From Candidatus Uhrbacteria bacterium (GTDB lineage: Bacteria; Patescibacteriota; Patescibacteriia; UBA9934): a DNA stretch of 64,000 bases. Position numbers and translations under genes: made by a program. The DNA is taken from assembly GCA_018664485.1 (NCBI GenBank), contig JABJOE010000007.1, positions 4,353-68,352 on the forward strand, given 5' to 3'. Positions 7,484 to 27,601 of the stretch are shown here, one piece after another. The stretch's first letter is position 1, and the number at the start of each line of letters is the position of its first letter. The notes below the pieces were generated by a model. The model saw only the letters and a program-made list of their open reading frames with translations, was not told where the DNA came from and did not search any database.

Positions 7484-8644
7484 TTATTCTGTAACGAATG
7501 CTCCGTGGCGTTGATGAATGTGCTTCTTATAAACACCCAACGTCTCCTTTGCGATATCGTCCCAGTTATAGTCGGTTTCAACAAATCCTCGTGCGCTATG
7601 ACCAATTGAGGCCATGTGCATCTCGTCAGATAGTAGAGCGATCAATTCGGAAGCTAGATCATTAACGTCGCCTGACGCAAATGATACTCCGTGATCTTCA
7701 ACTACCTCCAAGTTTTCTGGAATGTCTGATGCTAGAACCGCTTTTCCGTAGCTCATCGCCTCGAGTACCGCGATTGGCATACCCTCGGAATAAGACGGAT
7801 GAACAATACATTTAGCACCGGCAAATAAAGCAGTTAGCACATCTCCACGCTGGAAATCTGTAAAAACAATTGAATCATCGCCCGATGCCTGTGCATGTAG
7901 ATCACGAATATATGAATCTGTAAAAGATGATCCTCCTACAATTGCCAATTTCAAATCTTTAAGTAATTCAGGTCTCTTTTCTTTCGCCACCTTCCACGCA
8001 TCAATTAAGATATGCGCTCCCTTATGCGGGACGAGGCGCGCGACCATAGCAACGTAGCCATTGGAACGCAATCCAAAAGGGCGCAAAACAACATCATTGG
8101 TTGTGACGCGTTGTGGCGTAATGCCGTTTGGAATGTAATGCGTTCTTTTGCCATACGATGATTCAATATAGTTACGAAGAACTTTACTTACACAAATAGT
8201 TTCGTGAGGACTTTTAACACACATCTTTTCTCCAGCTCGAAGAGCGAATCGTGCGACAGCTCCCCACTTTCCATGTTCTCGATCAATACAATGGAATGTT
8301 GTAATAACAACGCTTGAAGGAGAAAGTATCCGAGCAATCCATGAAAGAAGAGATGGTCCGACGCCATGAACATGAATTACATCCGGTGCGCTTATAAGGC
8401 AGGCGTGAATCAGAGAGAATAGTGTATGCGTGATCGCATCTAAATGCTTTGTGCGGATAGATGGAATACGGATAACACGCACACCGTTAAAACGATCAGA
8501 CGTTCCCGGTGAATACCAAGGACGCGCGTATGCGATCACTTCGTGACCTTCGCGCACCAAACGAGTCGAGAGATGCTCGACATGCGTTTCGATACCTCCG
8601 AACTTAGACGGAAGCCCTTTTTGTCCAATCATTACAATTTTCAT
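7484..8644 (-). CDS. glycosyltransferase family 4 (GT-B fold)
   Basis: A C-terminal EX7E-type motif is present (SYSEGMPIAVLEAMSYGKAVLASD), and the size of about 385 aa fits. Confidence 0.8.
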   Translation of the reverse strand: MKIVMIGQKGLPSKFGGIETHVEHLSTRLVREGHEVIAYARPWYSPGTSDRFNGVRVIRIPSIRTKHLDAITHTLFSLIHACLISAPDVIHVHGVGPSLLSWIARILSPSSVVITTFHCIDREHGKWGAVARFALRAGEKMCVKSPHETICVSKVLRNYIESSYGKRTHYIPNGITPQRVTTNDVVLRPFGLRSNGYVAMVARLVPHKGAHILIDAWKVAKEKRPELLKDLKLAIVGGSSFTDSYIRDLHAQASGDDSIVFTDFQRGDVLTALFAGAKCIVHPSYSEGMPIAVLEAMSYGKAVLASDIPENLEVVEDHGVSFASGDVNDLASELIALLSDEMHMASIGHSARGFVETDYNWDDIAKETLGVYKKHIHQRHGAFVTE

Positions 8645-8868: not shown

Positions 8869-10095
8869 CTACTCCCGCGAATCTATTACAGATTCATAGA
8901 TATCCATAATTTGAGAGCTCAGAAGTTCAGGGTCAACGATCTGGGAAGCCCTTTGATACGCAGCTTCTCCCATTGATTTTGCAAAGCCTTCATCACGTAT
9001 AAACGGCTCCAATGAATGTGCCAAAGAGTCCGCGTCCCCCGCTCTAAATACCGAACCACTAACGCCATCTTCAACCATCTCCCGCAGCCCGCCGTGATCA
9101 CCTACAATAACAGGCACTCCGCATGACATAGCCTCAATAGCAACTAGCCCAAGTACCTCATGCCAAATCGATGGCGCTACCATCACACGAGACCGTGAGC
9201 GTAGATTCTCCAGATCATCTCCAGATACAAAACCTAAAAACTTTACCTTCTGCCCTTCACCTACAAGCGCTCTCAATTCTTTCTCATACGAACCAGTTCC
9301 CGCAATACGCAACTCGACTTCAGGGAACGCTTTCATTGCCTCAATCAATGTATGTACACCTTTATAACGTTCCAGACGACCAATGTAGGCCACGTACCCA
9401 TCATCACCCTTACGCATTTCTTTTATTGGCTGCGTGAACGAATGGTGCATCACCATTTTCTTTGCGTCATAACCAACACTTACCAAAACATCAGCAATAA
9501 AATCTGAAATAACGTGATAACGATCAATACGGCGATCGTACGCACCGGTCCACTTATGAAAACGCGTTATCGCCTCCAATACGAAAGTCGCTGCAAAAGA
9601 ACCTTTGATGAAACGAGTTTTGGCAGCGGCCCACATCCCCAGATCATCCAGATCCATAGACTTGTCACGACGAGTATCCCAAAGCGAATAGTTAGCACTC
9701 ACCAAAGCGTAATCATGCACGCTCATCACCACAGGAACATTGTGACGCGCGCACGCTTTTAAAATTGATGGTGAAAGATGTGTGTGAACATTGTGAATAT
9801 GAACAATGTCCGGCCGGAAAGCATCGATCATTTTGGACATCTTCTTATATGCCTCACGCGACCAAAGCGCCCTTGCCAATTGCCTAATTGCACCAACCCC
9901 GTAGCCTACACTGCCCTCCGTATTAACTTCGCTCACAAAATAATCAGACCAAGCTGACGGTAGATTCTTTGGATAATGCATAGCGAAAGGCGCAACGGCA
10001 TGACCGGCCCTCTCTTGGGCATCCATCAAATCAAGTTGGAACCTCTCAGCCCCAGCTCGCATATAAAAGTATTTGTGTGCATGGATAATTCTCAT
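8869..10095 (-). CDS. glycosyltransferase family 4 (second copy)
   Basis: The EX7E region 'SIWHEVLGLVAIEAMSCGVPVIVGD' is present, with a GT4-like N-terminal Gly-rich region. Confidence 0.8.
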   Translation of the reverse strand: MRIIHAHKYFYMRAGAERFQLDLMDAQERAGHAVAPFAMHYPKNLPSAWSDYFVSEVNTEGSVGYGVGAIRQLARALWSREAYKKMSKMIDAFRPDIVHIHNVHTHLSPSILKACARHNVPVVMSVHDYALVSANYSLWDTRRDKSMDLDDLGMWAAAKTRFIKGSFAATFVLEAITRFHKWTGAYDRRIDRYHVISDFIADVLVSVGYDAKKMVMHHSFTQPIKEMRKGDDGYVAYIGRLERYKGVHTLIEAMKAFPEVELRIAGTGSYEKELRALVGEGQKVKFLGFVSGDDLENLRSRSRVMVAPSIWHEVLGLVAIEAMSCGVPVIVGDHGGLREMVEDGVSGSVFRAGDADSLAHSLEPFIRDEGFAKSMGEAAYQRASQIVDPELLSSQIMDIYESVIDSRE

Positions 10096-10098
10096 AAA

Positions 10099-11628
10099 CT
10101 ATTCAATCAATTTCTCACGCTTTCCAAGAACAACTACAACGCCACCCATAACCCACAGATAAGATGCCAATGTTCTGACCTCCAAGAATGTTGCAAGGAA
10201 CGCGTTAAGCACAATAGCTATCATCGCCGCTGCAACCCCCAAGGCTAACGCCCTAGTCATCGGGTCCTTTGATTTTCTCCACACACGCACACAGGTCAAG
10301 AACAACGTGACATACATCCAAATATAAATACCCAGACCGAGAGTTCCGATCTCACCCCAAAGACTGAGCCAGTTATTGTCGATATATCCTTGCGTACCGT
10401 ACACGCCAAACGGAAGCCCGAGCATTTCATATACATGAGTATTCGAAAGGGCCGCTGCCGCTCCTCCACCGAACATTCCAGGCCCATGACCAAACACTGG
10501 GGACGCCGGAATTACAGATCCAATCGTTTCGATAACCCAATAAACACGTCCCAGTCCATAATATTCACTTCGCCAACGCTCATAAGAAAAGGCTTCAAAA
10601 AATCGCTCAGTCAAATTCTGGTCCGGTACTTCAAGTAATGTATCGACAACCAATCCAGATATAGCAAGATAAATCAAAAGACCACCAATGGCGATACCAA
10701 CCCCCCACCTCACACGTTGATCACGCTTTGCCCATATAGCAATAAACAATGCACCCAATACAAAGCCAAACCAAGATGAGCGAGAGTAAGTAAACGCTAG
10801 GGCAGGAAGTGCTATCAACAACCCCCAGCCAAGCCAAGAATAACGCTTACGGAGCTTCTTTTCATACAGCATCGAAAGACCGATAAGAAGCATGAACGCC
10901 ATAAAAGTACCGAGACGATCATAGCGACCCATAGTACCAAAAATTCGCTGACCATAATCCCAAAACTGAACCGTTCCAGATGTCAGCTGAATGTCTCCAA
11001 AAGAACGACTCTCTGTCGGCAAAAGAAAAGTATCTAATCTCTCACCAAATATCGCCTGCCCATATCCGAGGGCGATTTGTACAGCTAATATAAGGAAAAG
11101 TCCCATCAACACTTTCTTAACCCACTGGGTTGACGGAGCAAGGTGTACGGTTACAAAAAATAGCAAAATGAATCGTATGATCTGCCTTATTCCAAGCAAC
11201 ATGTCAGTAACTGGAATGAAATTGATCAGTGCTGACGCAAGCGCTACAACAATCAAAATAACAAACGAAATATCTATCGGTGTAGTTTCTCTTTTTATTT
11301 GTCCGGTAAACCGTTTCCAAACCGTCGACGCTACAAGTAGATAAATAATACCTTCTGATACATACCGAGCGTATACATACAAATCGTCTGGAACCCACTT
11401 TAGTATGAATGGTTCAAATGGAAGATAGAAAAGTAATAGCGCGAGTGCCCAGGTCGGTCGCAGAAAAGCCAGAACCAACACAAGAAGGCCGGCAAGTGCA
11501 CCGAGCACCAACGACGCTGACGAATAAATCATTATCAAAAGTACACCGATCGACACGGTGAACAAAGCGATACTTGCAATACCGGCATACTCATCACTTG
11601 AACGATAGATCTCTCTGATACCTTTCAT
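10099..11628 (-). CDS. O-antigen ligase / Wzy-type polysaccharide polymerase-like polytopic membrane protein
   Basis: The protein has about 11-12 predicted TM helices, a large periplasmic loop and a 509-aa length. It lies directly downstream of two GT4 genes. Confidence 0.55.
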   Translation of the reverse strand: MKGIREIYRSSDEYAGIASIALFTVSIGVLLIMIYSSASLVLGALAGLLVLVLAFLRPTWALALLLFYLPFEPFILKWVPDDLYVYARYVSEGIIYLLVASTVWKRFTGQIKRETTPIDISFVILIVVALASALINFIPVTDMLLGIRQIIRFILLFFVTVHLAPSTQWVKKVLMGLFLILAVQIALGYGQAIFGERLDTFLLPTESRSFGDIQLTSGTVQFWDYGQRIFGTMGRYDRLGTFMAFMLLIGLSMLYEKKLRKRYSWLGWGLLIALPALAFTYSRSSWFGFVLGALFIAIWAKRDQRVRWGVGIAIGGLLIYLAISGLVVDTLLEVPDQNLTERFFEAFSYERWRSEYYGLGRVYWVIETIGSVIPASPVFGHGPGMFGGGAAAALSNTHVYEMLGLPFGVYGTQGYIDNNWLSLWGEIGTLGLGIYIWMYVTLFLTCVRVWRKSKDPMTRALALGVAAAMIAIVLNAFLATFLEVRTLASYLWVMGGVVVVLGKREKLIE

Positions 11629-11775
11629 GAGAACAGTATATCAAAAAAGAATTGATTAGCACCGTACATTCATAATGAAAATCCTGTAGATGCACAAAGG
11701 CCGGCTCACTCTCCCCCGAAGGATTGAGATAAGCCGACCAAGATAGGTGTTTGAGTTCTGCTCTAGCCGATGCTA

Positions 11776-14283
11776 TTAGCTTCCCTCACCCACAGCGCAA
11801 TGAGTTGCCAGGCCCGCGGTACTGGAAGTCCAGTTACCCGTAGCGATGATGGCATACTCAGTGGTCGTCGATGCCGCCGTCCACGATGCGCAGATGAAGT
11901 TCTCGGTACCAGCTGCGATGGACTCGTTGGCCATGTAGTCGCCCAATACATCGTACTCGGTGGCAGTCCAGATCCGAAGACCTTGACCATCCACTCCGTC
12001 ATTGACGATCACGCAGCAGATTGCGTAGTGGTGTCCCGAGGTAACCGAGAAGCCTGAGCTTCCAAGAGCCTCGTTGTCGACACCTTGTCCGATTGCAGGA
12101 TACAGCAACTCGATCGAGTAAAAGTCACCAGCTCCCGGGTAGGAAGTGTAGGTGAATTCCACGACCGAGGAGGAGGTGGTTCCAGACGAACTAGCATACG
12201 GCTCCCAATTACTCAAGCCACCCTCAAAGGTGGAGTCACCCTCTTCGTCAGGGAAGAGATTGACCGCCGCCGAGTCGAAGGTGAAGGATCCTGCATCTGT
12301 CGACACCGTCTCCCCCGCCCTGTCCCAGACACCGTCGCAGTCCTGATCCCAGGCGCTGTACGGATTGGCAGCCTCGCCAGGATTGACGAAGTCGACCTCA
12401 TCGTTGCAATCGGTTCCAGAGGAATCGACGCACGTTTCATCGACGTATCCGTCACCATCTGCGTCGGTCAAGCCGTCAGTGGCACTCCCCGAGCAATCCA
12501 TGTCCCGCGTGTCGCCGCAGTCCTCCGTTGCCGATGAGTTGACCTCATCGTCATCGTCGTCGCAGTCGGTTCCGCCGTAGGAATCATGATCCTCTCCATC
12601 GAGGTCCTGATCGTAGTCGTTTGCGCCGTCACAGTCGCTGTCCACACCGTCGTACCACGTGTCAGTGGCCGAGGTGTTGACCGCGGAGTCAGTGTCGTCG
12701 CAGTCGGTACCGGAATACGCGTCCGAGTCCTCTCCATCACTGTCCGCATCGTAGTCTGACGCACCATCACAATCCTGATCCACACCGTCGTACCACGTCT
12801 CCGTGGCGCCAGGGTTGATCGAGGAATCCGTGTCATCGCAGTCATCACCGGACGAACCGGTACATACCTCATCGATGTAGGAGTCGCCGTCAACGTCGGT
12901 CGTGCCATCAAGGGCACTACCAGAACAGTCCAAGTCCCGCGTGTCGCCGCAGTCCTCCGTTGCCGATGAGTTGACCTCATCGTCAACGTCGTCGCAGTCG
13001 GTTCCGCCGTAGGAATCATGGTCCTCTCCATCGAGGTCCTGATCGTAGTCCGATGCACCGTCACAGTCACTGTCCACACCGTCGTACCACGTCTCGGTGG
13101 CGCCAGGGTAAACAGTAGAGTCAGCGTCGTCGCAGTCGGTACCGCCATCACAGCTGTCATGGACATACGAATCAGCGTCCACATCCGTGGCACCATCACT
13201 GGCACCGCCGGAACAATCGAGATCCCGCGAATCATCGCAGTCCTCGCTGGCACCCGGGTTGACCTCAACGTCGGTGTCGTCGCAGTCGCTGTCGTCGAGC
13301 CCGTAGCCTGACGGCTGCGAGCAAGAGTCCTGACTGGCCGCCGCGTCGCCATAGCCATCCTCGTCGGTGTCTGCGAAGTAGGTCGTCCCACTACTGACAT
13401 CCCAACTCGAATCAAGTGAGTCGACGTAGCCATCACAGTCATCATCGACCGTGTTGCAGACTTCAGTCGCGCCGGGGTGAACCTCGGCGTTCCCGTCGTC
13501 GCAGTCGGTTCCGTACGGAGAGTAGCCACCCTCGACACCATCACACGATGCGATCTCCTCACCATCGAAGTCTGCGTCACCGTAGAGGTCACCATCCCCA
13601 TCGGGGTACTGGATAAGCACGATGTCGTCGACATCCTCTGCGTCGGTCAGACCGTCACAGTCGTTGTCGAGTTCATCACACACCTCAATGGCATAGAGGT
13701 TGACGCTAGGCTCGGTGTCGTCGCAGTCATCTGCATTGTCGACATAGCCGATCTCGAGCGTACACGACTCATACGGAGCGTCGGGATCACCGTAGCGATC
13801 ACCATCCACATCCGGATAGGAGGTCGTGGTCACACCTTCGTCGACCTCGCCGTCGCAGTTATTGTCCTGCTCGTCACACACCTCGATGGCGCCCGGATTG
13901 ATGTCACCGTCGTCGTCGTTGCAGTCACCGCTCTGTGCACTGAAACCCTCGGGGGTCTCGCAAGCCAGTTGCGTTGACGTATCGTCGCCGAAGCCGTCAG
14001 CATCGCTATCTTCGAAGAAGTTCGTCTGAACGTCCTCATCGGTGGCGCCGTCACAGTCGTTGTCTTTCCCGTCGCACACCTCGGTGGCATCAGGATTGAC
14101 AGCGGCGTTGCTGTCGTCGCAGTCGTCGTCGGCGTTGAAGCCATCGCCGTCGTCGTCAGCACCACTCGGCGTGTCAGTGTCCGCGATCTGGGCTCTGAAA
14201 GCCGGAAGACCATCAGCGCCATCCAGAGCGCATGCGCTCAGGAGCGCAACGAGCACCATCTGCAGGATTGATCGAAGTCTCAT
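11776..14283 (-). CDS. secreted Asp/Cys-rich repeat protein (MopE-like 'putative metal-binding' / myxococcus cysteine-rich repeats: D-x-D-G-x-x-D-C-D-D ... P-G-A-x-E-x-C-D-G-x-D-N-D-C-D-G), encoded on a high-GC island
   Basis: The likely start is the Met of MRLRSILQMVLVALLSACALDG at 14283, which has a GGAG 5 nt upstream. The longer ORF back to 14385 is probably an upstream extension. At least 12 repeats of 'DCDDxDxxVNPGATExCDGxDNDCDG' are present. GC content is about 60% against about 44% in flanking genes, and GAC/TGC/GGC codon choice is used throughout. Confidence 0.7.
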   Translation of the reverse strand: MRLRSILQMVLVALLSACALDGADGLPAFRAQIADTDTPSGADDDGDGFNADDDCDDSNAAVNPDATEVCDGKDNDCDGATDEDVQTNFFEDSDADGFGDDTSTQLACETPEGFSAQSGDCNDDDGDINPGAIEVCDEQDNNCDGEVDEGVTTTSYPDVDGDRYGDPDAPYESCTLEIGYVDNADDCDDTEPSVNLYAIEVCDELDNDCDGLTDAEDVDDIVLIQYPDGDGDLYGDADFDGEEIASCDGVEGGYSPYGTDCDDGNAEVHPGATEVCNTVDDDCDGYVDSLDSSWDVSSGTTYFADTDEDGYGDAAASQDSCSQPSGYGLDDSDCDDTDVEVNPGASEDCDDSRDLDCSGGASDGATDVDADSYVHDSCDGGTDCDDADSTVYPGATETWYDGVDSDCDGASDYDQDLDGEDHDSYGGTDCDDVDDEVNSSATEDCGDTRDLDCSGSALDGTTDVDGDSYIDEVCTGSSGDDCDDTDSSINPGATETWYDGVDQDCDGASDYDADSDGEDSDAYSGTDCDDTDSAVNTSATDTWYDGVDSDCDGANDYDQDLDGEDHDSYGGTDCDDDDDEVNSSATEDCGDTRDMDCSGSATDGLTDADGDGYVDETCVDSSGTDCNDEVDFVNPGEAANPYSAWDQDCDGVWDRAGETVSTDAGSFTFDSAAVNLFPDEEGDSTFEGGLSNWEPYASSSGTTSSSVVEFTYTSYPGAGDFYSIELLYPAIGQGVDNEALGSSGFSVTSGHHYAICCVIVNDGVDGQGLRIWTATEYDVLGDYMANESIAAGTENFICASWTAASTTTEYAIIATGNWTSSTAGLATHCAVGEGS

Positions 14284-14493
14284 GTCATCTCCTCGGAAGG
14301 GGAAAATGGGTTGGTTGCCTGGAAGTCTTTTTAGGAGCAAATCGCCCCTTAGCGCCTCCTCCCTATTTAGGGAGCAGAACGCCACAATGTACAGTGTACG
14401 CGCCTAATTGTAAAGAGCAAGTAAACAACTGCCCTCAATCCCCCGCCAGGCGTTTGACAGTATTTTCAGCAAATGATAGACTCTCGTCGTTCT

Positions 14494-14790
14494 ATGAAAG
14501 CTGACATTCACCCAACTTACCACGCAAAAGCAGCAATTTCTTGCGCTTGTGGAGCAAAATACGATACTGGATCTACCATGGAGGCGATCTCAGTTGAGTT
14601 GTGTTCTGCTTGTCATCCTTTCTATACTGGAAAGCAAAAAATCGTTGATACGGCTCGTCGAGTTGAAAAATTCGTTAAACGAACCGAAAAGAAGGACAAT
14701 ACAGCACTTGATCATAAGGCAAAGGCAGAAAAGAAAGCTGCTCGTGCTAAAAAGCGTGCTGACAAAAAAGCAAAGGCTGATCAGGAATAG
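14494..14790 (+). CDS. rpmE: 50S ribosomal protein L31 with Lys/Ala-rich C-terminal extension
   Basis: [10 protein letters not shown]...[13 protein letters not shown] is the canonical L31 sequence. The tail is [19 protein letters not shown]. The ORF track start at 14473 is probably upstream of the true Met. Confidence 0.85.
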
Positions 14791-14934
14791 TGATTTTACT
14801 TTCAAAAGGCGTCCGCTAAATGCGGGCGTTTTGCGTTAAAGAAATACTCACTCCCCCGCCATTATCTAATTGAACGCACAAAGATCGCTCACAACTCGGC
14901 AAAACACTATTTTCAAGGTAAGATCTTAATAGCT

Positions 14935-17116: not shown

Positions 17117-18202
17117 TTACTTATATTCAACCTGTGACAGATCATCCACTATCTCTATCCATGTCACTCCAGGATGCATTTCAACCTCCCCGCCATTTAG
17201 ATAGAACGTAATGCGGCCGCCGTCCTCCATCCTCCACTCAACTAAATCAACGTTACCCATGCGGAATAGCAAAGCGTTACCGCGACTAAATGTATCAATA
17301 GATTTTCGGCCAATATTATCAATCGTTCTTATATCCATTGCGAGCACCGCTACTGTGTCTGACCAGATATTTGCCCCATCCTCCATCCGTGTTGGAGATC
17401 CGTATGTGTAACGAAGATATGATTCTTCATCAATATCATATTCCCAGTCAACGTCATATACAACGCCATCTGCAAAATCGATCTCAACCAGTAACACAGG
17501 TTCTTCCGCAGGCTCAACCTCACCATAGATCCACTGGTCATAATCAAGTGGCTGTAGATCCAGTCGATCGCTCGCTTCGATCAAAAGCTCAATAGTTGTA
17601 AACACATTGTGAGGTGCGAAGCGAGTTCCGTTTTCACGCCAGAAATAATCTCCAAACCAGAACTGGTTAATGTCTAATGTATCTCCATCCAGAATCTGCT
17701 CCAGCGCGTCAGGAGAGCCTCCAACATGCCCATAGAGAGCCTGCAAGCTATCTGCCCAATCAACATAGTAAGGGCGTGCTGAACGAACAGGTCCAATCTT
17801 ATCTACTTCATCCTCATCCGAAAACAGTACCAGGAAACGAGGAATGCCAGCCTCAACCGGAGCCTCTATAACCATGAAAGCCTGATCCAAACCAGACAAT
17901 GGCCAAGCGTCAGCAGAGTTCTCTACCATCACTCCAATCACTTGTGGAAGTGATTCGTAAGCCTCTTGTATCACCTCACCCGTTAACGGATGACGAATAG
18001 GCTCATCAACTAATATCTCCTCCACAATTTCGGCAACTGGTCCTGGAAGCGAAGACAAGAATGTCCATCCAGCAATAGCGCCTACCACTACAAGAACAAC
18101 GAGCGCTATCCACATCTCATCGATGCGAACGCTAGACAACAAAGAAGCGAGCCCCTTGCGAGACTCGATCTTCTTTTCGTTGTTCGGTTTTTTATTTTGC
18201 AT
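17117..18202 (-). CDS. membrane-anchored secreted protein of unknown function (possibly DUF3048-like)
   Basis: The preferred start is the Met of MQNKKPNNEKK (18202) rather than the 440-aa track ORF, which would overlap rplY by about 250 nt. An N-terminal TM helix (IALVVLVVVGAIAGWTFL) is present. The weak PLSGL..EAPVEAGIPRF motifs recall DUF3048. Confidence 0.4.
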   Translation of the reverse strand: MQNKKPNNEKKIESRKGLASLLSSVRIDEMWIALVVLVVVGAIAGWTFLSSLPGPVAEIVEEILVDEPIRHPLTGEVIQEAYESLPQVIGVMVENSADAWPLSGLDQAFMVIEAPVEAGIPRFLVLFSDEDEVDKIGPVRSARPYYVDWADSLQALYGHVGGSPDALEQILDGDTLDINQFWFGDYFWRENGTRFAPHNVFTTIELLIEASDRLDLQPLDYDQWIYGEVEPAEEPVLLVEIDFADGVVYDVDWEYDIDEESYLRYTYGSPTRMEDGANIWSDTVAVLAMDIRTIDNIGRKSIDTFSRGNALLFRMGNVDLVEWRMEDGGRITFYLNGGEVEMHPGVTWIEIVDDLSQVEYK

Positions 18203-18857
18203 TTGATTCCCCCTCCTTCTTGTCGTCACCTTCGGCTCCAGCAGCTTCGTTACCGTCAGCACCATCTTCAATTGGAGCATCAAGTTCGTCGATAGCTTCA
18301 GCCTGTCGTGGCATCTGAACGATTGCGATTGTTTGCTTTGGATCTGTTGTAATTTCCATTCCTTCCGGAACAACGATGTCAGACACATGTAGAGCATCTT
18401 CAAATGTTGCAAGTGGAGCAATGTCGAGAACGAATTCACGAACCAATGCGCTCGGCAACGCTTCTACGTCCACCTCGTCAATTGCTTGCACAAGTGTTCC
18501 ACTCATATCCTTTACGGCAAGTGATACACCCTCCAATCGAACGCTCACAGATGTCTGCACCTTCTCGTTCATGTTGATACGACGGAAGTCAGCATGTGTG
18601 ATGTACTCAGTAAGTGGATCTCGTTGTAACTCCTGGATCAACACGTTATGAGCGGTACCGTCAACATCTACAGACACCACAGTACTCACTCCAGCCTTTG
18701 CGTATAGTCGCTCAAGGTCGGATCGATCAAGAGAAAGATTTGTTGGCTCGATTTCAAACCCATACATAACAGCAGGAACTTCCCCTTCTAAACGTAGTGA
18801 GTTTGTCTTGCGGCCCATGATTTCTCGGGCCTTAGCAGCTATCGTATTATCAGACAT
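18192..18857 (-). CDS. rplY: 50S ribosomal protein L25 / general stress protein Ctc
   Basis: MSDNTIAAKAREIMGRK...LRLEGEVPAVMYG is typical of L25/Ctc, and an acidic C-terminal tail is present. The start was chosen at the internal Met. Confidence 0.8.
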   Translation of the reverse strand: MSDNTIAAKAREIMGRKTNSLRLEGEVPAVMYGFEIEPTNLSLDRSDLERLYAKAGVSTVVSVDVDGTAHNVLIQELQRDPLTEYITHADFRRINMNEKVQTSVSVRLEGVSLAVKDMSGTLVQAIDEVDVEALPSALVREFVLDIAPLATFEDALHVSDIVVPEGMEITTDPKQTIAIVQMPRQAEAIDELDAPIEDGADGNEAAGAEGDDKKEGESNAK

Positions 18858-18955
18858 ATGAAATTTTTGCCCTTTCGGGTCTTTTCTTTGGAATAACGGC
18901 ACTATTGAACCGCATTTAGCCTATCCTGTCAACCTTTATAGAAATAGACAATCTT

Positions 18956-19330
18956 CTACTTTGAGAACAATTCCTGACTCCATGCAATGTCTAGCGCCTC
19001 ATGAGCCTCCATAACGTCGCCAATACTTACGATTTCCTTCCCATGGAAGAGTTTAGCGTCCTCAAATGAGCAGTCTGTCATCAGCCCAGAGCACATAACC
19101 CCCTCTTTTTGACGTAATACAGAAAAGAGCATTGAATGCTTACATTTATCGCAAGTGAGGTGAAATAGAGTCTGCTCCTTAGCCTTCCTCAAAATACGTA
19201 CATTTTGATAAATATACGCAGTTTTACAGGTCGGGCAAGCGCCTACAATACCCATTGGGTCATTTTCGTGTGAGTGCATGTCGTGAGAATTTAAATATGT
19301 TTTTTGATTGATGTAGATATGCGTTGACAA
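18956..19330 (-). CDS. hypothetical Cys-rich (CxxC...CxxC) zinc-ribbon-like protein
   Basis: The sequence contains CPTCK ... CDKCKH. There is no confident family match. The true start may be the Met of MHSHEND (about 19282). Confidence 0.35.
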   Translation of the reverse strand: MSTHIYINQKTYLNSHDMHSHENDPMGIVGACPTCKTAYIYQNVRILRKAKEQTLFHLTCDKCKHSMLFSVLRQKEGVMCSGLMTDCSFEDAKLFHGKEIVSIGDVMEAHEALDIAWSQELFSK

Positions 19331-19340
19331 AGCATGTCAG

Positions 19341-19378
19341 GCCCCGCAACATTGAAGTGTCCAAAGATATCCGCAGAC
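19341..19378. repeat. copy 1 of a ~38-bp direct repeat (GCCCCGCAACAYYGAAGTG(G)TCCAAAGATATCCG)
   Basis: It is near-identical to 19521-19558 (about 34 of 38 positions). It lies in the 230-bp gap between the SEDS gene stop and the zinc-ribbon gene start. Confidence 0.6.
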
Positions 19379-19520
19379 TATTACAAGCTGCCATGTTCTC
19401 GACTCATTCGGAAGAATGTTTAGGCGAGACTAGCGAAGGACGGATATATTTGAGATCAATTCTAGGAGCGGGGAAAACGGTGAGGAGCCGTACTAATACG
19501 TACGGTAACGAACCGTAGGG

Positions 19521-19558
19521 GCCCCGCAACACCGAAGTGGTCCAAAGATATCCGTCCC
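19521..19558. repeat. copy 2 of the ~38-bp direct repeat
   Basis: See copy 1. The repeats flank about 140 bp of non-coding sequence. Confidence 0.6.
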
Positions 19559-19560
19559 TA

Positions 19561-20685
19561 CTATACCAGATTTATTTTGTCTCCTGGGCGTAAATGCACA
19601 ACTATACTCTGCACTATACCAATCAAAATCATCGATATTAAAAGTGAAGTTCCACCGGCACTCACAAGAGGTAGCGCCACTCCGGTTGTCGGCAGTACAG
19701 CAAGGTTCACACCGATATTTACAACAGACTGAACAACGAAAATAGCAAAAATACCAATCGCTAAAAAGCTTGTAAAGTTATCACGTGCCTGTCGGGCGGC
19801 TGTCAGCATCCTCCACAGCAACACACCAATTGCAGCGAACACCACCATCACACCAATGAACCCTAGTTCCTCTGCGATGACTGCAAAAATAAAGTCAGTC
19901 TGACTCTCTGGCAAAAACTGTAACTGACTCTGAGATCCAAAACCAAGTCCACGTCCGAACAATTGCCCTGAACCAATAGCAATCTTTGCCTGTGCAATGT
20001 TATACCCGCTACCAAGTGGATCCAATGTTGGGTCTAGAAAAACCTGCAATCGTAGACGCTGATAATCGGCAAGTGCAAACATCCATGCAACCCAACCTAA
20101 CAACGCTCCTGCAAATGTGATTATTACAGCGTGATGAACCCGCAGTCCAGCGAAGAACATCACAATCATCCACATACCAATCAACAAAATAGCACTACCA
20201 AGATCCGGCTGCGCAATCGTAAGAACCGTTGGTGCAGCAACCAAAAAACCACTCCCAAATATCTCCTTCCATCCAAAACGGCGACGAGCATGCTCTCCAA
20301 AATATCGAGCTAACTGCACGGCGAGTGCCACCTTCATAAACTCAACGGGCTGAAATGAAACTCCGGCGACAATAAACCAACCTGTCGTTCCGTTGAGCTC
20401 TGTTCCAAAAAACAAAACTAAAACCATCAAAGCGACCCCAACCAAATACAGTGCCCTCCCCCAGCTGCGTAAGAATAGATGATTGAAATTAGCTATAACA
20501 ATCATTACTACTGTAGACACTAGGAAAATCGCTGCATGTTTTTTAACCAGGGCAAACTCTAACGTCTCACGAGATAACTCAACAGAATAAATCGCGGCAA
20601 GCCCAAAAGCGAACAAAACAAAGGTCGCAAGCAAAAGCAACCAGTCAAAACGCTGAAATTCTCGAAAAAACCGACTCGCAATCAT
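19561..20685 (-). CDS. SEDS-family peptidoglycan glycosyltransferase (FtsW/RodA/SpoVE)
   Basis: The protein has 10 TM helices, a large extracytoplasmic loop and conserved SEDS motifs (e.g. GSGYNIAQAKIAIGSGQLFGRG). Confidence 0.85.
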   Translation of the reverse strand: MIASRFFREFQRFDWLLLLATFVLFAFGLAAIYSVELSRETLEFALVKKHAAIFLVSTVVMIVIANFNHLFLRSWGRALYLVGVALMVLVLFFGTELNGTTGWFIVAGVSFQPVEFMKVALAVQLARYFGEHARRRFGWKEIFGSGFLVAAPTVLTIAQPDLGSAILLIGMWMIVMFFAGLRVHHAVIITFAGALLGWVAWMFALADYQRLRLQVFLDPTLDPLGSGYNIAQAKIAIGSGQLFGRGLGFGSQSQLQFLPESQTDFIFAVIAEELGFIGVMVVFAAIGVLLWRMLTAARQARDNFTSFLAIGIFAIFVVQSVVNIGVNLAVLPTTGVALPLVSAGGTSLLISMILIGIVQSIVVHLRPGDKINLV

Positions 20686-20720
20686 ACACGAGTCAGCTTA
20701 TCAAAGTGATAGATTCAAGG

Positions 20721-21674
20721 CTACCTTTCGATACCATCTCTACTGTCCAAGTCATCCCCTCCCTGCTGATCCATGTAAACATCCTCATCAAAGTAATCAA
20801 TAACCGGATAAATCCGTAAATCCTGTGCACTGGTCGGAGCACGCCCAAACCAATTAACTGTCACCTCTCGTATCTCCCCAGCTTCAAAACCTGCGATAGT
20901 GGCTTGATTAACTCCAACAACCGTCCCTCCACGTTCAAGCACGATCCAAAATGGAGTTGACCAATAATTGTACGGGGTATCATTCTCTACCGTGAACATT
21001 GATCGCACGACACTATCTTCTTCTAAAACTATTTTATCTCCATATTCTGATGATGACAGAACAAAATTCTCATGCTCATCCATCCAAGAGTTTATATCAG
21101 CAACCTCGTGTGTATCAACGCGCTGCCAAACTACATCCTCTACAATCAGCTCAGCTTGCGACGGCGAATTCTCAAGAGCAACACTCAACTGAATAAGTGG
21201 ACGCGATTCACTTGGTAGAACGAATCCCGATTCCATATCAGTCACCTCACCATCCTCCGTCTCGAATCCATATTTAAATGTCGCGTACCAATCTTCATTC
21301 CCGTTTTCAATCTCAGAATAAAAATCATATTTACCATCATCAAATGTGATAGCGATAGCATTACTCGTCAGAAGAGCGAACGGAGCGCGCTCCAACGATT
21401 CATCGTGCAAGGAACCAATCTCATTAAACACCTCGGCTACCGATTGCCTATCTGCAAACTGACCAGAAACCAAATACCCAAACACGAAAAATAAAAACAA
21501 TAAAACCAAGATGAGATCAAACAATGCCCATATACCGAGAGCCAAACGTCCAACGATCGGACGAGCATCTATCATCCGAACATTTCGCTGATAATCCTTC
21601 TCTGCCTCCGAAACTTTACGCTGTGCCTCTTGCAGCTGCGTATCGATTGGTGGCTGTTCTTCTTTTTTAGCCAT
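20721..21674 (-). CDS. hypothetical membrane-anchored acidic protein (co-directional with and upstream of the SEDS gene)
   Basis: There is an N-terminal TM helix (LALGIWALFDLILVLLFLFFVFGYLV) followed by an acidic extracytoplasmic domain. No family was recognised. Confidence 0.4.
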   Translation of the reverse strand: MAKKEEQPPIDTQLQEAQRKVSEAEKDYQRNVRMIDARPIVGRLALGIWALFDLILVLLFLFFVFGYLVSGQFADRQSVAEVFNEIGSLHDESLERAPFALLTSNAIAITFDDGKYDFYSEIENGNEDWYATFKYGFETEDGEVTDMESGFVLPSESRPLIQLSVALENSPSQAELIVEDVVWQRVDTHEVADINSWMDEHENFVLSSSEYGDKIVLEEDSVVRSMFTVENDTPYNYWSTPFWIVLERGGTVVGVNQATIAGFEAGEIREVTVNWFGRAPTSAQDLRIYPVIDYFDEDVYMDQQGGDDLDSRDGIER

Positions 21675-21947
21675 AATATTTTAAGTATAGCAAACCATTA
21701 CAAAACGTGGTAAAGTGTCGCCGTTATCATGAATAATAATACCTCACGATAGCACGTTGAAACTAGTCTAGTTTTCCACAAATCGCTGACTGTCTTCACT
21801 ATTGTGCTTCGGCGCAATGTCTGTAGCTACTCAATGATTTGTTGAAAAACATCCTCGACCTTGGCAATTATTAAGGTCGTACCTGACCAAATGTAGAGCT
21901 GAATAAATTGTTCAACGGCTCTTTGACTCTAGAAATACTCATCGCGG

Positions 21948-23999
21948 ATGTATCATTACACTATGCCAAAAAACACAACAAAAAAACCAGCCAAGAACGG
22001 AAAGGCGAAAGAATATAGCGCCAAATCCATTACAGTACTTGAAGGACTAGAACCGGTTCGTAAACGTCCAGGAATGTACATCGGATCAACTGGACCTACG
22101 GGTCTGCACCACATGATCTGGGAGGTTGTCGACAACTCGTTCGATGAGGTTATGGCCGGGCATGCAACAAAGGTTGTAATCCGCATGCAGCCTGACAGCT
22201 GGATTCAAGTTGAAGATGATGGTCGTGGAATCCCTGTCGACATTCACAAAAAGCACAAAGTTTCAGCTTTGGAACTTGTTCTTACAAAACTTCACGCCGG
22301 TGGAAAATTCGGTGGAGAAGAAAGTGGGTACAAAATCTCCGGTGGTCTTCATGGTGTTGGTGTTTCAGTTGTAAACGCCCTATCCACTGAATTACAGGCA
22401 GAAATTCACCGAGATGGATTCACTTGGCATCAGGTTTACAAAAAAGGAAAACCTCAAGGAAAGATCGAGAAAGGAAAAAAGAGCAAACGAAATGCAACTA
22501 TTATTCGGTTTCATCCTGATGATTCAATTTTTGAAACAATCGACTTTGATCACCAAACTGTAATAGACCACCTGCGTCAGCAAACATATCTAACGGCTGG
22601 AGTAGAGGTTGAAATTATCGATGAACGCGGTGACACACCAAAGAACTACGGTTTCTACTTTGAAGGAGGAGTGTCTTCATACGTTCGACATCTCAATAAA
22701 AAGAAAGAAGCAAAACACCCAAGCGTTTTTTACGTAAACAAGTCATACGAAAGTGTGCAGGTGGAACTCGGAGTTCAGTACACTCATGAATATCACGAAG
22801 GAGTTCACTGTTTTGCAAACAACATCACCAACCCCGACGGTGGTACCCACCTTGCCGGTTTCCGCTCTGCCCTCACCCGTTCGCTCAACAACTACGCACG
22901 TGAAAAAGGTTATCTGAAAGAAAAGGACTCAAACCTTACCGGTGAAGATACTCGGGAAGGACTTACGGCTGTTATCAGTATCAAGTTAGCTGAACCTCAA
23001 TTTGAAGGTCAGACAAAAGGAAAGCTTGGAAACCCAGAAGCACGTACGGCCGTGGAATCAGTGTTCGGTGAAGCGTTCAAAGTATTCCTTGAGGAGCATC
23101 CAAAAGACGCAGAGGAAATCATTGGAAAATGTCTTCTCTCGGCTCGAGCACGTGCGGCTGCTCGTGCGGCCCGCGAAACCGTTCTTCGTAAAGGAGCGTT
23201 TGAAGGCCTCATGCTTCCAGGAAAACTCTCAGACTGTTCAAGTAAAGATCCGAGCGTGTCAGAAATCTTCATCGTTGAGGGAGATTCAGCTGGTGGATCC
23301 GCAAAACAAGGACGTGAGCGAAAGTACCAGGCCATCCTTCCACTTCGAGGAAAGATCCTGAACACTGAACGAGCACGATTAGACAAACTACTCACCAACA
23401 ACGAGGTGAAGAACCTAATCATTGCCCTTGGTACAAACATCGGAGAAGGCTTTGACATCACAGGTCTACGATACGATCGCGTAATCATCATGACTGACGC
23501 GGACGTAGACGGAGCCCACATCCGAACATTGCTGCTGACATTATTCTTCCGCTACTTCCCAGAACTTATCCGCGAAGGCCACGTGTACATTGCAATGCCT
23601 CCCCTGTATCGAGTGCAGGTTGGTAAGCAAGCTGAGTACGCTTTCTCTGACGAAGAAAAGGAAGAGATCATTGAAAAGTTCATAAAGAACTCAACTAAAG
23701 GAAAGGCTGCTGCGGCCAAAAAAGAAAGTGCAGAGGATAGTGAAACGATTGAAGCTGAAGTCGTTGAAACGTCAGGTGTAAAGGTAAATATTCAGCGATA
23801 CAAGGGACTTGGTGAAATGAACCCCGGACAGCTCTGGGAAACAACTATGGACCCCGCAACTCGCGTCATGAAGCAGGTAACGATCGACGACGCCGAAGTT
23901 GCAAACGAAACATTTGAGACTCTAATGGGAGCAGAAGTAGCTCCTCGCAAAAAGTTCATCCAATCCAACGCAAAAGAGGTTGTGAACTTGGACGTCTAA
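21948..23999 (+). CDS. gyrB: DNA gyrase subunit B
   Basis: The GHKL ATPase motifs (GLHHMIWEVVDNSFDE, GGLHGVGVSVVNALS), the TOPRIM region (EGDSAGGSAKQGRERKYQAILPLRGKILN) and the C-terminal tail are all present. Confidence 0.9.
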   Translation: MYHYTMPKNTTKKPAKNGKAKEYSAKSITVLEGLEPVRKRPGMYIGSTGPTGLHHMIWEVVDNSFDEVMAGHATKVVIRMQPDSWIQVEDDGRGIPVDIHKKHKVSALELVLTKLHAGGKFGGEESGYKISGGLHGVGVSVVNALSTELQAEIHRDGFTWHQVYKKGKPQGKIEKGKKSKRNATIIRFHPDDSIFETIDFDHQTVIDHLRQQTYLTAGVEVEIIDERGDTPKNYGFYFEGGVSSYVRHLNKKKEAKHPSVFYVNKSYESVQVELGVQYTHEYHEGVHCFANNITNPDGGTHLAGFRSALTRSLNNYAREKGYLKEKDSNLTGEDTREGLTAVISIKLAEPQFEGQTKGKLGNPEARTAVESVFGEAFKVFLEEHPKDAEEIIGKCLLSARARAAARAARETVLRKGAFEGLMLPGKLSDCSSKDPSVSEIFIVEGDSAGGSAKQGRERKYQAILPLRGKILNTERARLDKLLTNNEVKNLIIALGTNIGEGFDITGLRYDRVIIMTDADVDGAHIRTLLLTLFFRYFPELIREGHVYIAMPPLYRVQVGKQAEYAFSDEEKEEIIEKFIKNSTKGKAAAAKKESAEDSETIEAEVVETSGVKVNIQRYKGLGEMNPGQLWETTMDPATRVMKQVTIDDAEVANETFETLMGAEVAPRKKFIQSNAKEVVNLDV

Positions 24000-27121: not shown

Positions 27122-27601
27122 GTGTTTTGTTCTAGGCTTCTCTTAGGGCCATTCCTTGAGATGAACCTAGAACGCGTAAAAACGTTCGCAACAACAAGGA
27201 GTGCAATGCACCCCGTCTCAATTTGGCTGCTTAGCAGCCTTCCTCGCATCGTGGTCGGGTACACGAAGTTCATTCTGAGCGTACTCTCCACGCGGTCCTG
27301 GAAGCAGAGCCTAGCCGCCCTGCTGATCATCGGAATCGCAGAATTCGGTATTGGCTGGTTCGTCGGCTGGATTCCTGCCTACGAGATTGCCGTGACCTTG
27401 GTCACGGTCCCCTTCCTCATGGATCTGATCCTTCGCCTGGTGAACCGCCAAGTGATGCTCGGTCACATCGAGCAAGGAAGTGTGGACAACGCGATTGAGC
27501 AGGCCCTCGACCTTCTCGCCGCATTGGCACTTCTCGAGTCCAAGAAAGGACTTGCAAAGACTTCTGGATCCTCCAAGGTTGTCCAGAAAGCCGCGGTCTG
27601 A
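27122..27601 (+). CDS. hypothetical membrane protein encoded on a GC-rich (~56%) cassette with its own promoter and terminator
   Basis: It has two or three TM helices, and its codons are GC3-rich (ctg, gcc, ggc, atc), unlike neighbouring genes. An alternative start is MNLERV at about 27160. Confidence 0.4.
   Translation: MFCSRLLLGPFLEMNLERVKTFATTRSAMHPVSIWLLSSLPRIVVGYTKFILSVLSTRSWKQSLAALLIIGIAEFGIGWFVGWIPAYEIAVTLVTVPFLMDLILRLVNRQVMLGHIEQGSVDNAIEQALDLLAALALLESKKGLAKTSGSSKVVQKAAV

Follow-up and report, generated by a model that had tools for sequence, protein, structure and literature searches.

A GC-rich lipoprotein gene of Candidatus Uhrbacteria belongs to a clade-wide cassette with a host-scaled GC excess at synonymous sites

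Does a sharp jump in GC content at a single gene of a Candidatus Uhrbacteria contig mark an arrival from a high-GC donor, a mistake of assembly, or a property of a resident gene? In the window (the whole stretch of 64,000 nucleotides analyzed here, or 64 kb), a coding sequence on the reverse strand (11776..14283, stop codon included) encodes an 835-aa acidic, Cys-rich lipoprotein with a GC of 0.590 and a GC3 of 0.675, while the 38 other long ORFs of the window range from 0.41 to 0.48 in GC and from 0.31 to 0.47 in GC3. Windows of 1 kb reach 0.585 and 0.595 GC at the gene versus 0.40-0.49 elsewhere, and the gene is the only compositional outlier in the 64 kb. A preliminary description had reported this jump (about 60% versus about 44%), a preference for GAC, TGC, GGC and GTC codons, and spurious long ORFs around the gene; all three were borne out, the last as five shadow ORFs of 121-388 aa on both strands.

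We calculated the composition expected from the gene's own amino acids combined with the synonymous usage of the host. The expected GC was 0.49 and the expected GC3 0.376 (simulation sd 0.016, z = 18), so that amino-acid composition accounts for only about 4 of the 14 GC points and was rejected as the source of the high GC; codon context was rejected as well, since conditioning also on the next base gave an expected GC3 of only 0.371. The outlier status proposed in the preliminary description therefore stands at synonymous sites after this control (z ~ 18). Along the gene, GC3 is 0.57 in the signal peptide, 0.69 in the repeats and 0.66 in the C-terminal domain, and GC is back at the host level at both ends of the ORF. 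Two further candidates were rejected: general translational selection, because the genes of the ribosomal proteins L11, L1 and L31 and of NusG have a GC3 of only 0.31-0.45, and repeat-driven ectopic conversion alone, because the nonrepetitive C-terminal domain is equally GC3-rich and the repeats are weak at the DNA level (a main tandem array of 138 nt x 1.8 copies with a 79% match, and a minor 27-nt x 2 array).

The longest ORF at the locus (11776..14385, reverse strand) begins with GTG and would encode 869 aa. The ATG at 14283, which has a Shine-Dalgarno-like GAGGAG (14289..14294, reverse strand) 5 nt upstream, gives 835 aa, one residue fewer than first described, and the encoded protein is 100% identical to NCBI protein HON52_02890 of Ca. 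Uhrbacteria (P0001). A promoter-like TTTACA-17-TACATT (14386..14414, reverse strand) about 100 nt upstream of the ATG is a consensus match only and not significant as a single match, the promoter scan being at chance level (2 sites versus 1.8 expected). Between the stop codon and the next start lies an AT-rich spacer of 147 nt (11629..11775, reverse strand), with GC back at the host level, in which we found an imperfect hairpin and no clear terminator, the terminator scan also being at chance level. The genes that follow on the same strand encode a Wzy_C-family membrane protein resembling O-antigen ligases/polymerases (10099..11628, GC3 0.414), a GT4 glycosyltransferase within the conserved arrangement (8869..10095) and a second GT4 glycosyltransferase (7484..8644), confirming the Wzy-like/GT4/GT4 neighborhood first proposed. 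The gene is thus flanked by rpmE/prfA/prmC and by Wzy_C/GT4; no integrase, tRNA or transposase was found flanking it, and a tRNA scan of the 64-kb window found none. A search of NCBIfam with the lipoprotein and the Wzy/GT4 proteins returned nothing above cut-offs, and Rfam had no match between 11 and 28.5 kb.

The Wzy_C gene, immediately downstream on the same strand, is a conserved anchor with orthologs in 80 loci. These 80 related species-representative loci were our comparison set, and 54 of them, with at least 3 kb of sequence upstream of Wzy, were informative. Across the 80 genomes, the slot directly upstream of Wzy_C-GT4, on the same strand, usually holds one to five secreted Asp/Cys-rich genes. 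MopE-type ORFs are present in 39 of the 54 informative loci (directly adjacent to Wzy in 29), and in most of the remaining loci further GC-rich genes for secreted proteins or lipoproteins fill the slot, whose content varies among MopE-type genes, poly-Asp lipoproteins and others; at two loci (L024, L034) the cassette is missing. Strong GC3 outliers numbered 119 among 897 ORFs, with 118 located upstream of Wzy and 117 on its strand. L003, the closest relative, has an ortholog that shares the C-terminal domain (69.5% identity) immediately upstream of Wzy. A second locus holds orthologs in other lineages, and Uhrbacteria of ~60-65% GC (L001, L023, L064) carry the same gene types. These data show the window gene to be this genome's representative of a cassette for secreted proteins and lipoproteins that is conserved across the Uhrbacteria clade. 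A literature search found no prior report of such a compositional pattern in CPR or Uhrbacteria.

The excess has a regular form across hosts. GC3 of MopE-type genes was above that of the host in 41 of 41 loci (mean +0.31, p = 9e-13), over a range of host GC3 from 0.33 to 0.90. On the logit scale, the slope of cassette against host was 1.09 +/- 0.20 for GC3 and 0.96 +/- 0.16 at four-fold sites, with a delta-logit GC3 offset of 1.67 that is uncorrelated with host GC (r = 0.07); the window gene, at 1.1, lies at the low end of the distribution. For example, two orthologs that are 56% identical (L062 and L074) have a GC3 of 0.67 and 0.91 in hosts with a GC3 of 0.33 and 0.55, respectively. The boundary with Wzy is sharp: in 33 loci, where the intervening spacer has a median of ~97 nt, the last 50 island codons have a GC3 of 0.82 versus 0.51 in the first 50 Wzy codons, which do not differ from the rest of Wzy (0.508 vs 0.50; difference 0.003, p = 0.78, n = 33). 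NNY, NNR and four-fold codons all show the shift, and at residues invariant in the motif GC-ending codons are overrepresented (Cys OR 1.82, Gly OR 1.55, Asp MH-OR 1.46). Spacers inside the cassette exceed host spacers by +0.077 GC, about as in truly GC-rich Uhrbacteria, values that imprecise start codons may contaminate, and remain far below the GC3 of the cassette (0.51 vs 0.83). The island genes also match the 3-1 dinucleotide signature of their own host (r 0.31 vs -0.01, permutation p = 2e-4). An excess intrinsic to the PF11617 family was rejected, because MopE genes in non-CPR genomes (Flavobacteriales and two other non-CPR loci) match their hosts. In every genome examined, a constant shift toward GC at synonymous sites therefore sets apart the cassette genes and virtually no others, on top of the base composition of each host and with ORF-sharp boundaries.

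The cassette genes have passed mainly vertically along with their flanks, but their proteins diverge much faster. The more alike two Wzy proteins are, the more alike are the islands (rho 0.37), and the top island matches fall in the closest Wzy pairs, with island proteins only 43-67% identical where Wzy is 92-93% identical. Some island pairs (L062/L074) are more alike than their Wzy distance predicts, indicating some exchange of cassettes or sorting of paralogs. As the excess is clade-wide, host-scaled and ORF-sharp, and as the genes carry the signature of their own host, we infer a resident, fast-evolving surface-protein cassette, whose GC jump would be an equilibrium property rather than the scar of a recent transfer or an artefact of assembly.

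Our overall reading, to which we give a probability of roughly two in three, is that this resident cassette is under a persistent, gene-delimited GC-ward force, preferably selection at the codon level. The most likely cause would be selection on the synonymous sites of the cassette ORFs, through translational accuracy or efficiency or at the mRNA level. We prefer such a force to GC-biased gene conversion (gBGC) because no gradient extends into the adjacent Wzy gene, because GC3 is as high in the nonrepetitive domain as in the repeats, and because invariant motif residues favor GC-ending codons. Several observations speak against it: the mild enrichment of the cassette spacers is not predicted by a purely codon-level force; the Akashi-type enrichment is modest and could stem from a nucleotide context that is fixed in the motifs; codon selection as strong as S ~ 1.7 would be unusual for a small-genome symbiont whose ribosomal genes show none; and a shift of all codon classes resembles a bias of mutation or conversion more than it does tRNA-specific optimization. 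A more specific proposal, which we advance only tentatively, is that one small genome holds two synonymous-codon regimes, with a "codon dialect" of surface genes maintained by constant, ORF-delimited selection (S ~ 1.7 in logit units). If true, the rest of the genome, ribosomal genes included, would lie outside the GC-rich usage, which might gate expression of the surface repertoire, mRNA stability or translational accuracy, or might depend on the tRNA-modification deficits of reduced symbionts; it would also offer a strong, local GC-ward force in bacteria that is directly measurable.

The alternative that survives best, although improbable, is gBGC itself, acting at a recombination hot spot: under diversifying selection, surface-antigen genes recombine often between strains, and GC-biased repair of heteroduplexes would raise local GC. 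The generality of the shift across NNY, NNR and four-fold codons, the mildly raised cassette spacers (+0.077) and the very fast protein evolution are all consistent with it, as is the constant logit offset, which a constant conversion coefficient predicts, and the many contigs that break in the cassette (25 of 79 end within 3 kb upstream of Wzy) fit strain heterogeneity. However, recombination anchored in conserved flanks should also convert the first 50 codons of Wzy, where we saw no gradient, the spacers stay far below the GC3 of the cassette, and conversion does not predict the enrichment of GC-ending codons at invariant residues. Moreover, +0.3 GC3 is far beyond the effects reported in bacteria; those of Lassalle et al. 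2015 are said to be far smaller.

A rather unlikely scenario is recurrent replacement, in which the slot is refilled from a pool of GC-rich Uhrbacteria or of their mobile elements without time to ameliorate. Uhrbacteria of ~60-65% GC with the same gene types do exist, the content of the slot is variable down to the two loci without a cassette, other lineages have orthologs at a second locus, and sharp boundaries fit a cassette unit. Against it, cassette GC3 tracks the host with a logit slope of ~1 and not 0, the dinucleotide signature is that of the own host, similarity scales with Wzy identity and peaks in sister genomes, an ortholog occupies this very site in the closest relative, and the window gene has no integrase, tRNA or transposase at its flanks; the GC richness of the pool would still need its own explanation.

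The transfer suggested in the preliminary description, a single recent acquisition from a high-GC donor such as Myxococcota, is very improbable and already contradicted. Generic high-GC bacteria do have a similar codon usage, Myxococcota are rich in PF11617 repeats, and the gene is the sole outlier in 64 kb. Nevertheless, the top non-self match is only 44% identical and sits on a CPR-sized contig, the C-terminal domain occurs in only six clusters, with CPR-like context at the recovered loci, and no mobility genes lie nearby. A high-GC donor does not account for an excess that is clade-wide at a fixed syntenic position and scales with host GC3 at a logit slope of ~1, nor does foreign origin agree with an own-host signature and a divergence that tracks the flanking Wzy. 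Among the hallmarks of genomic islands we found atypical composition; the closest relative does carry an ortholog at this site and most of the 54 informative loci have the cassette, the composition depends on the host, and flanking tRNA, integrase or transposase genes are missing. The chimeric or mis-binned contig also suggested there, for which the abrupt change at both gene ends and the frequent breaks of relatives' assemblies at the cassette might speak, is scarcely credible, since junctions of GC-rich gene, short spacer and Wzy recur with the same contrast at the same syntenic site in more than 40 independent assemblies from different groups and assemblers, the closest relative included, the boundaries are ORF ends with an RBS and a spacer between, the DNA-level repeats are diverged (79% match), and the contig has 197 kb in its NCBI record.

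The protein itself suggests what such a cassette may do. It contains 21.8% Asp and 41 Cys, with a net charge of about -221. The signal peptide first described is of the lipoprotein type (aa 1-18, MRLRSILQMVLVALLSAC; 14230..14283, reverse strand; regex match), with a positive n-region, a hydrophobic h-region and a lipobox of the form [LVI][ASTVI][GAS]C, here LSAC at residues 15-18, so that Cys18 is the predicted lipidated residue; orthologs P0031 and P0121-P0125 have equivalent lipobox N-termini. The repeat region (aa 43-649; 12337..14157, reverse strand) combines PF11617 cores with DxDxDG-type loops and contains 36 Cys. The PF11617 profile matched at 250.4 bits (cut-off 27) in eight stretches, in agreement with the secreted Asp/Cys-rich tandem-repeat protein with a "MopE" motif first proposed; at least 12 repeats had been claimed, and the motif count (C[DN]D..x..PGA.E.C..D.DC[DS]G) gives 10 regular cores plus 1 degenerate. 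Interleaved with these cores in the repeat region are DxDxD[GSE]-type loops, of which the whole protein has 18 matches, and the invariant C/D/E/P columns are common to 49 homologous segments. The fold predicted for a two-module segment (aa 86-215; mean pLDDT 96.2) consists of small hairpins and loops with little regular secondary structure, and a search of solved structures, MopE included, found none matching the repeats by sequence or by fold. The C-terminal domain (aa 650-835, 4 Cys; 11779..12336, reverse strand) is nonrepetitive, predicted all-beta and rich in Ser and Thr (23%), as had been described, with a length of 186 aa instead of about 170. We tentatively consider it a beta-jelly-roll (CBM4/22-like) binding domain, from a structure model of low confidence (mean pLDDT 52.7); Pfam gave no family for it even at E<=10, hence no CBM4/9/22 profile match. 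An exhaustive search placed this orphan domain in only six cluster representatives, each time C-terminal to MopE repeats, and the loci recovered with it (L003, L087/L088 and the 986-kb contig of P0031) have a CPR-like context; a word-index homolog search with the domain gave no match and missed its own protein too.

From this anatomy, we propose that the protein would be anchored in the membrane through lipidated Cys18 and that ~11 small modules would form an extended, very acidic stalk. Each module, as modeled, may comprise a short beta-hairpin, DxDxDG-type loops binding Ca2+ and two to four Cys in disulfides that would stiffen the stalk, at whose tip the 186-aa beta-sandwich would be presented, probably as a lectin-like domain for carbohydrate or another surface ligand. 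Such a protein could act as an adhesin or receptor of the episymbiotic CPR cell, and its glycosylation, or the building of the surrounding glycan layer, may be the task of the neighboring Wzy_C/GT4 enzymes.

A sharp GC island in this clade is thus no evidence for horizontal transfer or mis-binning, and the very genes likeliest to mediate host contact will be flagged or dropped by HGT finders that rely on composition and by software for binning or decontamination. In an episymbiont lineage that is uncultured, the cassette marks out a surface-protein locus, both conserved and fast-evolving, that is coupled to Wzy_C/GT4 and whose genes are candidates for adhesins or receptors in host recognition. 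It also touches the long-standing question of why bacterial GC lies above mutational equilibrium, through selection or biased gene conversion: a large, constant, ORF-sharp GC-ward force beside unaffected neighbors, replicated across hosts, is a natural experiment in which population genomics could separate the explanations.

Among known systems, the closest are the PF11617 repeat proteins ("MopE-related protein" in NCBI) known from Myxococcota, Bacteroidota and other groups, which share the ~30-aa Cys/Asp tandem motif and yielded 7,688 matches to the window protein. Elsewhere these proteins are secreted and modular, with repeats often joined to lectin, fibrinogen, FG-GAP or T9SS domains, whereas the window protein is set apart by its N-terminal lipobox anchor, by an orphan C-terminal domain found in six protein clusters, by a fixed site upstream of Wzy_C in Uhrbacteria and by a large synonymous GC excess missing in non-CPR members. 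MopE/CorA of methanotrophs shares the short C.DG.DN.CDG motif, from which the Pfam family takes its name; the copper-binding MopE is represented by PDB 2VOV (Helland et al. 2008). PF11617 spans only a short motif of MopE (PMC6189053). "MopE-like" consequently holds for this motif and not for homology to copper-binding MopE, of which sequence and fold comparison found nothing beyond the motif. MopE has a His/His/kynurenine copper site; the window protein, with no alignment to MopE on which that site could be placed, has just 7 His and 10 Trp among its 835 residues.

Asp-rich loops interleaved with Cys, as in TSP3/DxDxDG repeats, also occur in the window protein (18 loops; 36 Cys in the repeat region), and TSP3 repeats are ascribed to bacterial OmpA by Dai et al. 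2017, as cited in PMC12045341. Pfam TSP_3 gave no match, PF11617 being the only family at E<=0.01, and solved TSP3 structures gave no structural match to the repeats. In TraA of Myxococcus xanthus, a Cys-rich repeat region serves as a stiff "presentation stalk" that displays a beta-rich recognition domain (PMC12045341). TraA, which is polymorphic and fast-evolving, is a lipid-anchored surface protein with a long Cys-rich stalk, the architecture that we propose for the window protein. Its order of recognition domain, stalk and C-terminal anchor is mirrored in the window protein (N-terminal anchor, stalk, C-terminal domain), beside which, unlike in the TraA system, no TraB partner was seen.

Surface loci of atypical GC are familiar from the low-GC O-antigen and capsule clusters of enterobacteria and the GC-rich PE_PGRS genes of mycobacteria. 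Gene transfer agent (GTA) clusters are GC-elevated as well (PMC7360931). Like the cassette, these are surface or secreted gene sets that depart from genome GC clade-wide, so that atypical GC in them is not evidence of recent transfer. The departure of the cassette, however, is upward and mostly synonymous, while that of PGRS and GTA genes lies in amino-acid content, and unlike in those loci it is ORF-sharp and logit-constant across hosts of GC3 0.33 to 0.90.

At its synonymous sites, the GC-rich MopE-type lipoprotein gene of the window is subject to a GC-ward shift that is clade-wide, ORF-sharp and constant. Within the longest ORF of the flagged interval (11776..14385, minus strand; GTG start, 869 aa), an ATG lies at 14283, 5 nt after a GAGGAG, and the product starting there (11776..14283; 835 aa) is identical to the NCBI protein HON52_02890, from a 'Candidatus Uhrbacteria bacterium' MAG (196,885-bp contig). 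Its GC content is 0.590 and its GC3 0.675, with respect to 0.41–0.48 and 0.31–0.47 in the 38 other window ORFs of at least 200 aa, and the GC maximum among the remaining 1-kb windows of the 64 kb is 0.494. GC3 is high along the whole gene (signal peptide 0.57, repeats 0.69, C-terminal domain 0.66), and GC is back to host values at both ends of the ORF. From its own amino-acid sequence and host synonymous usage, we calculated an expected GC of 0.49 and GC3 of 0.376 (sd 0.016, z = 18), or a GC3 of 0.371 when the next base was also conditioned; the GC anomaly reported in the preliminary description is thus real and persists after controlling for amino-acid composition.

Downstream, on the same strand, lie the genes for a Wzy_C protein and then two GT4 glycosyltransferases, while rpmE, prfA and prmC are upstream and divergent. 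No tRNA, integrase or transposase was found beside the gene by inspection of its flanks and a tRNA scan of the window. Elsewhere in the window, a 159-aa GTG-start ORF (27122-27601, plus strand; GC3 0.66) that encodes a hydrophobic segment takes the place between rplA (L1) and a dCTP-deaminase-like gene where rplJ/rplL might be expected. An Rfam search around it gave no match; the ORF may be spurious, or it may be another small gene with high GC3. A MATCAP-domain protein (microtubule-associated tyrosine carboxypeptidase, PF08014; 6195-7403, plus strand; 91 bits) adjoins the glycan genes of this CPR genome, and a 602-aa protein (29464-31272, minus strand) carries two Thy1 (ThyX) stretches, being far longer than a typical ThyX.

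A Wzy alignment was used to scan species-representative genomes, giving 80 loci, nearly all from Uhrbacteria or Patescibacteria MAGs; the survey was confined to their 21-kb neighbourhoods, and ORFs were called mechanically with the first ATG as start. In 54 loci the contig reaches 3 kb or more beyond Wzy on the upstream side. MopE-type ORFs, defined by the PF11617 motif, were present in 39 of these and directly adjacent to Wzy on the same strand in 29, and in most of the remaining loci the slot is filled by other GC-rich genes whose products have a signal peptide or lipobox. Strong GC3 outliers (at least host median + 0.25) amounted to 119 among the 897 ORFs of the loci; 118 of them are upstream of Wzy and 117 on its strand. 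The sole one downstream in any locus (4942-5817 of L003; 291 aa, GC3 0.93) belongs to the closest relative, whose Wzy is 82% identical to that of the window. The contig of this relative starts within a gene orthologous to that of the window; the ortholog lies directly upstream of Wzy and has the same C-terminal domain (69.5% identity over 187 aa) and a GC3 of 0.88 vs 0.58 for the L003 Wzy. Since genes of this type keep their position and their GC contrast throughout the clade, L003 included, the suggestion of a chimeric or mis-assembled contig is not supported.

The same arrangement was found on a Patescibacteria contig, L002, where three MopE-type genes (about 60–62% GC) are followed by a 444-aa gene of unknown function, Wzy_C and GT4, all at 44–47% GC, and GC dips back towards the host level in the intergenic gaps. 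Identity to the window proteins is 50% for Wzy and 33% for GT4, indicating that the two genomes are deeply diverged. An IS110-family transposase (L002, 15204-15953) lies immediately past the GT4 gene. Small cassette lipoproteins built mainly from low-complexity (Asp-Ala)n or (Asp-Thr)n runs (L050, 3083-3904; L002, 2596-3255) are GC3-rich too (0.75–0.85). In two of the 54 informative loci, L024 (5819-11530) and L034 (8176-11512), a GC-rich cassette is missing upstream of Wzy; with the order prmC-prfA-(gap)-GT-Wzy, compared with prmC-prfA-rpmE-MopE-Wzy in the window, L024 resembles a natural 'empty site' version of the arrangement. Contigs end less than 3 kb upstream of Wzy in 25 of 79 cases, and those of L003 (1-689) and L004 (1-670) start inside GC-rich cassette genes. 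As assemblies break systematically in the cassette, its genes are probably under-represented in MAGs.

We compared the GC3 of MopE-type ORFs, picked by motif and not by GC, with that of the host, represented by Wzy and the downstream genes. MopE-type GC3 was higher in 41 of 41 loci (mean difference +0.31, range 0.08–0.49, Wilcoxon p = 9e-13). A fixed donor predicts a slope of 0 in the logit regression of island on host, and complete amelioration an offset of 0; we obtained slopes of 1.09 +/- 0.20 for GC3 and 0.96 +/- 0.16 for four-fold sites, and an offset of 1.67 (sd 0.66; 1.10 for the window gene) that showed no correlation with host GC (r = 0.07, p = 0.64). Under an unvarying GC-ward coefficient, a mutation-selection (or conversion)-drift equilibrium gives just this combination, a slope of 1 and a constant offset. 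All codon classes are affected: from host to cassette, the C-fraction of NNY codons rises from 0.37 to 0.75 and the G-fraction of NNR codons from 0.36 to 0.73, and four-fold sites lose A (0.27 to 0.08) and gain C (0.21 to 0.49).

The cassette genes are most probably resident rather than imported. In GC-normalised dinucleotide bias at codon junctions, cassettes correlate with their own hosts (mean r 0.31) and not with other hosts (-0.01); ranked among 34 hosts, the own host comes at a median of 5.5 (permutation p = 2e-4). The more alike two Wzy proteins are, the more alike are the cassette proteins (rho 0.37; median normalised score up from 0.18 to 0.46), and the closest genome pairs give the best cassette matches; cassette proteins nonetheless diverge much faster than Wzy (67% vs 93% identity in one pair, 43% vs 92% in another). 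The orthologs of L062 and L074, 56% identical, have GC3 of 0.67 and 0.91 in hosts of 0.33 and 0.55, so that the offset was kept while base composition moved with the host. The varying content of the slot, and a few pairs that resemble each other more than expected, make it probable that cassettes are sometimes exchanged or paralogs sorted, but exchange alone cannot create the offset. Together with the tracking of host composition and the ortholog in the closest relative, the own-host signature speaks against the foreign origin proposed earlier.

The shift goes with the gene and not with the Wzy locus, as the orthologs P0121 and P0031 sit in another conserved context (RRF-GlyRS-M16-TIM-TPR), where P0121 still has a GC3 of 0.92 vs 0.46–0.61 in its neighbours. 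At L087, two further genes (13535-14797 and 433-1077) reach GC3 of 0.90 and 0.96 vs 0.46–0.61 in neighbours; neither matches a Pfam family or shows an obvious signal peptide, so the GC-rich class may extend beyond secreted proteins. About 6 kb away from this second MopE locus, a probable integrated mobile element occupies 18199-22268; this low-GC block (0.39–0.45) includes a serine recombinase, Bro-N, a Phage_CRI-like protein and an aminoglycoside-resistance-like gene.

In the cassette gene next to Wzy, GC3 is 0.82 over the final 50 codons; past a short spacer it drops to 0.51 in the first 50 codons of Wzy, which do not differ measurably from the remainder of that gene (difference 0.003, p = 0.78; 33 loci). 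Cassette spacers have a GC of 0.51, host spacers 0.44 and cassette coding sequence 0.65, and the non-repetitive domain is as high in GC3 as the repeats. This step, the spacer values and the GC3-rich non-repeat domain go against a diffuse regional process. GC-ending codons are commoner at invariant motif residues than at the same amino acids elsewhere (Cys OR 1.82, Gly OR 1.55; Asp, stratified OR 1.46), which favours a codon-level component. Ordinary translational selection is disfavoured, because the L11, L1, L31 and NusG genes show no GC-rich codon preference and the shift covers all codon classes and not just a tRNA-specific subset. On these grounds, we rank three candidate explanations: gene-delimited selection on synonymous sites as the likeliest, with the enrichment at invariant residues in its favour, biased gene conversion second and recurrent replacement of the cassette third. 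A GC excess intrinsic to the protein family was rejected, as MopE genes are no higher than host values in the three non-CPR genomes used as controls (Flavobacteriales, 0.41–0.43 vs 0.38–0.44; another 44%-GC genome, 0.40 vs about 0.40; Bacteroidota, 0.53 vs 0.67). Our literature search found no report of a clade-wide GC-ward synonymous shift in CPR or Uhrbacteria.

The preliminary description of the protein was broadly right, with corrections to its size (835 and not 836 aa) and repeat number (about 11 modules and not 12 or more). The signal peptide is of the lipoprotein type (lipobox LSAC, Cys18), and the protein contains 21.8% Asp, one Lys and 41 Cys and has a net charge of about -221, with ten regular and one degenerate PF11617 core motifs, 18 DxDxDG-like loops and a non-repetitive C-terminal domain of 186 aa (23% Ser+Thr). 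In other family members, PF11617 repeats are paired with C-type lectin, fibrinogen or FG-GAP domains. In Myxococcus TraA, a lipid-anchored protein, the Cys-rich repeat region is thought to be a presentation stalk for a recognition domain (PMC12045341). These pairings, the TraA precedent and the anatomy of the window protein suggest a putative adhesin or receptor, in which a membrane-anchored acidic stalk, stiffened by Ca2+ and disulfides, would present a lectin-like tip; the adjacent Wzy_C/GT4 products may glycosylate it or build a glycan around it. The window gene is a new member of an already known kind of repeat protein; what appears to be unreported is its compositional regime.
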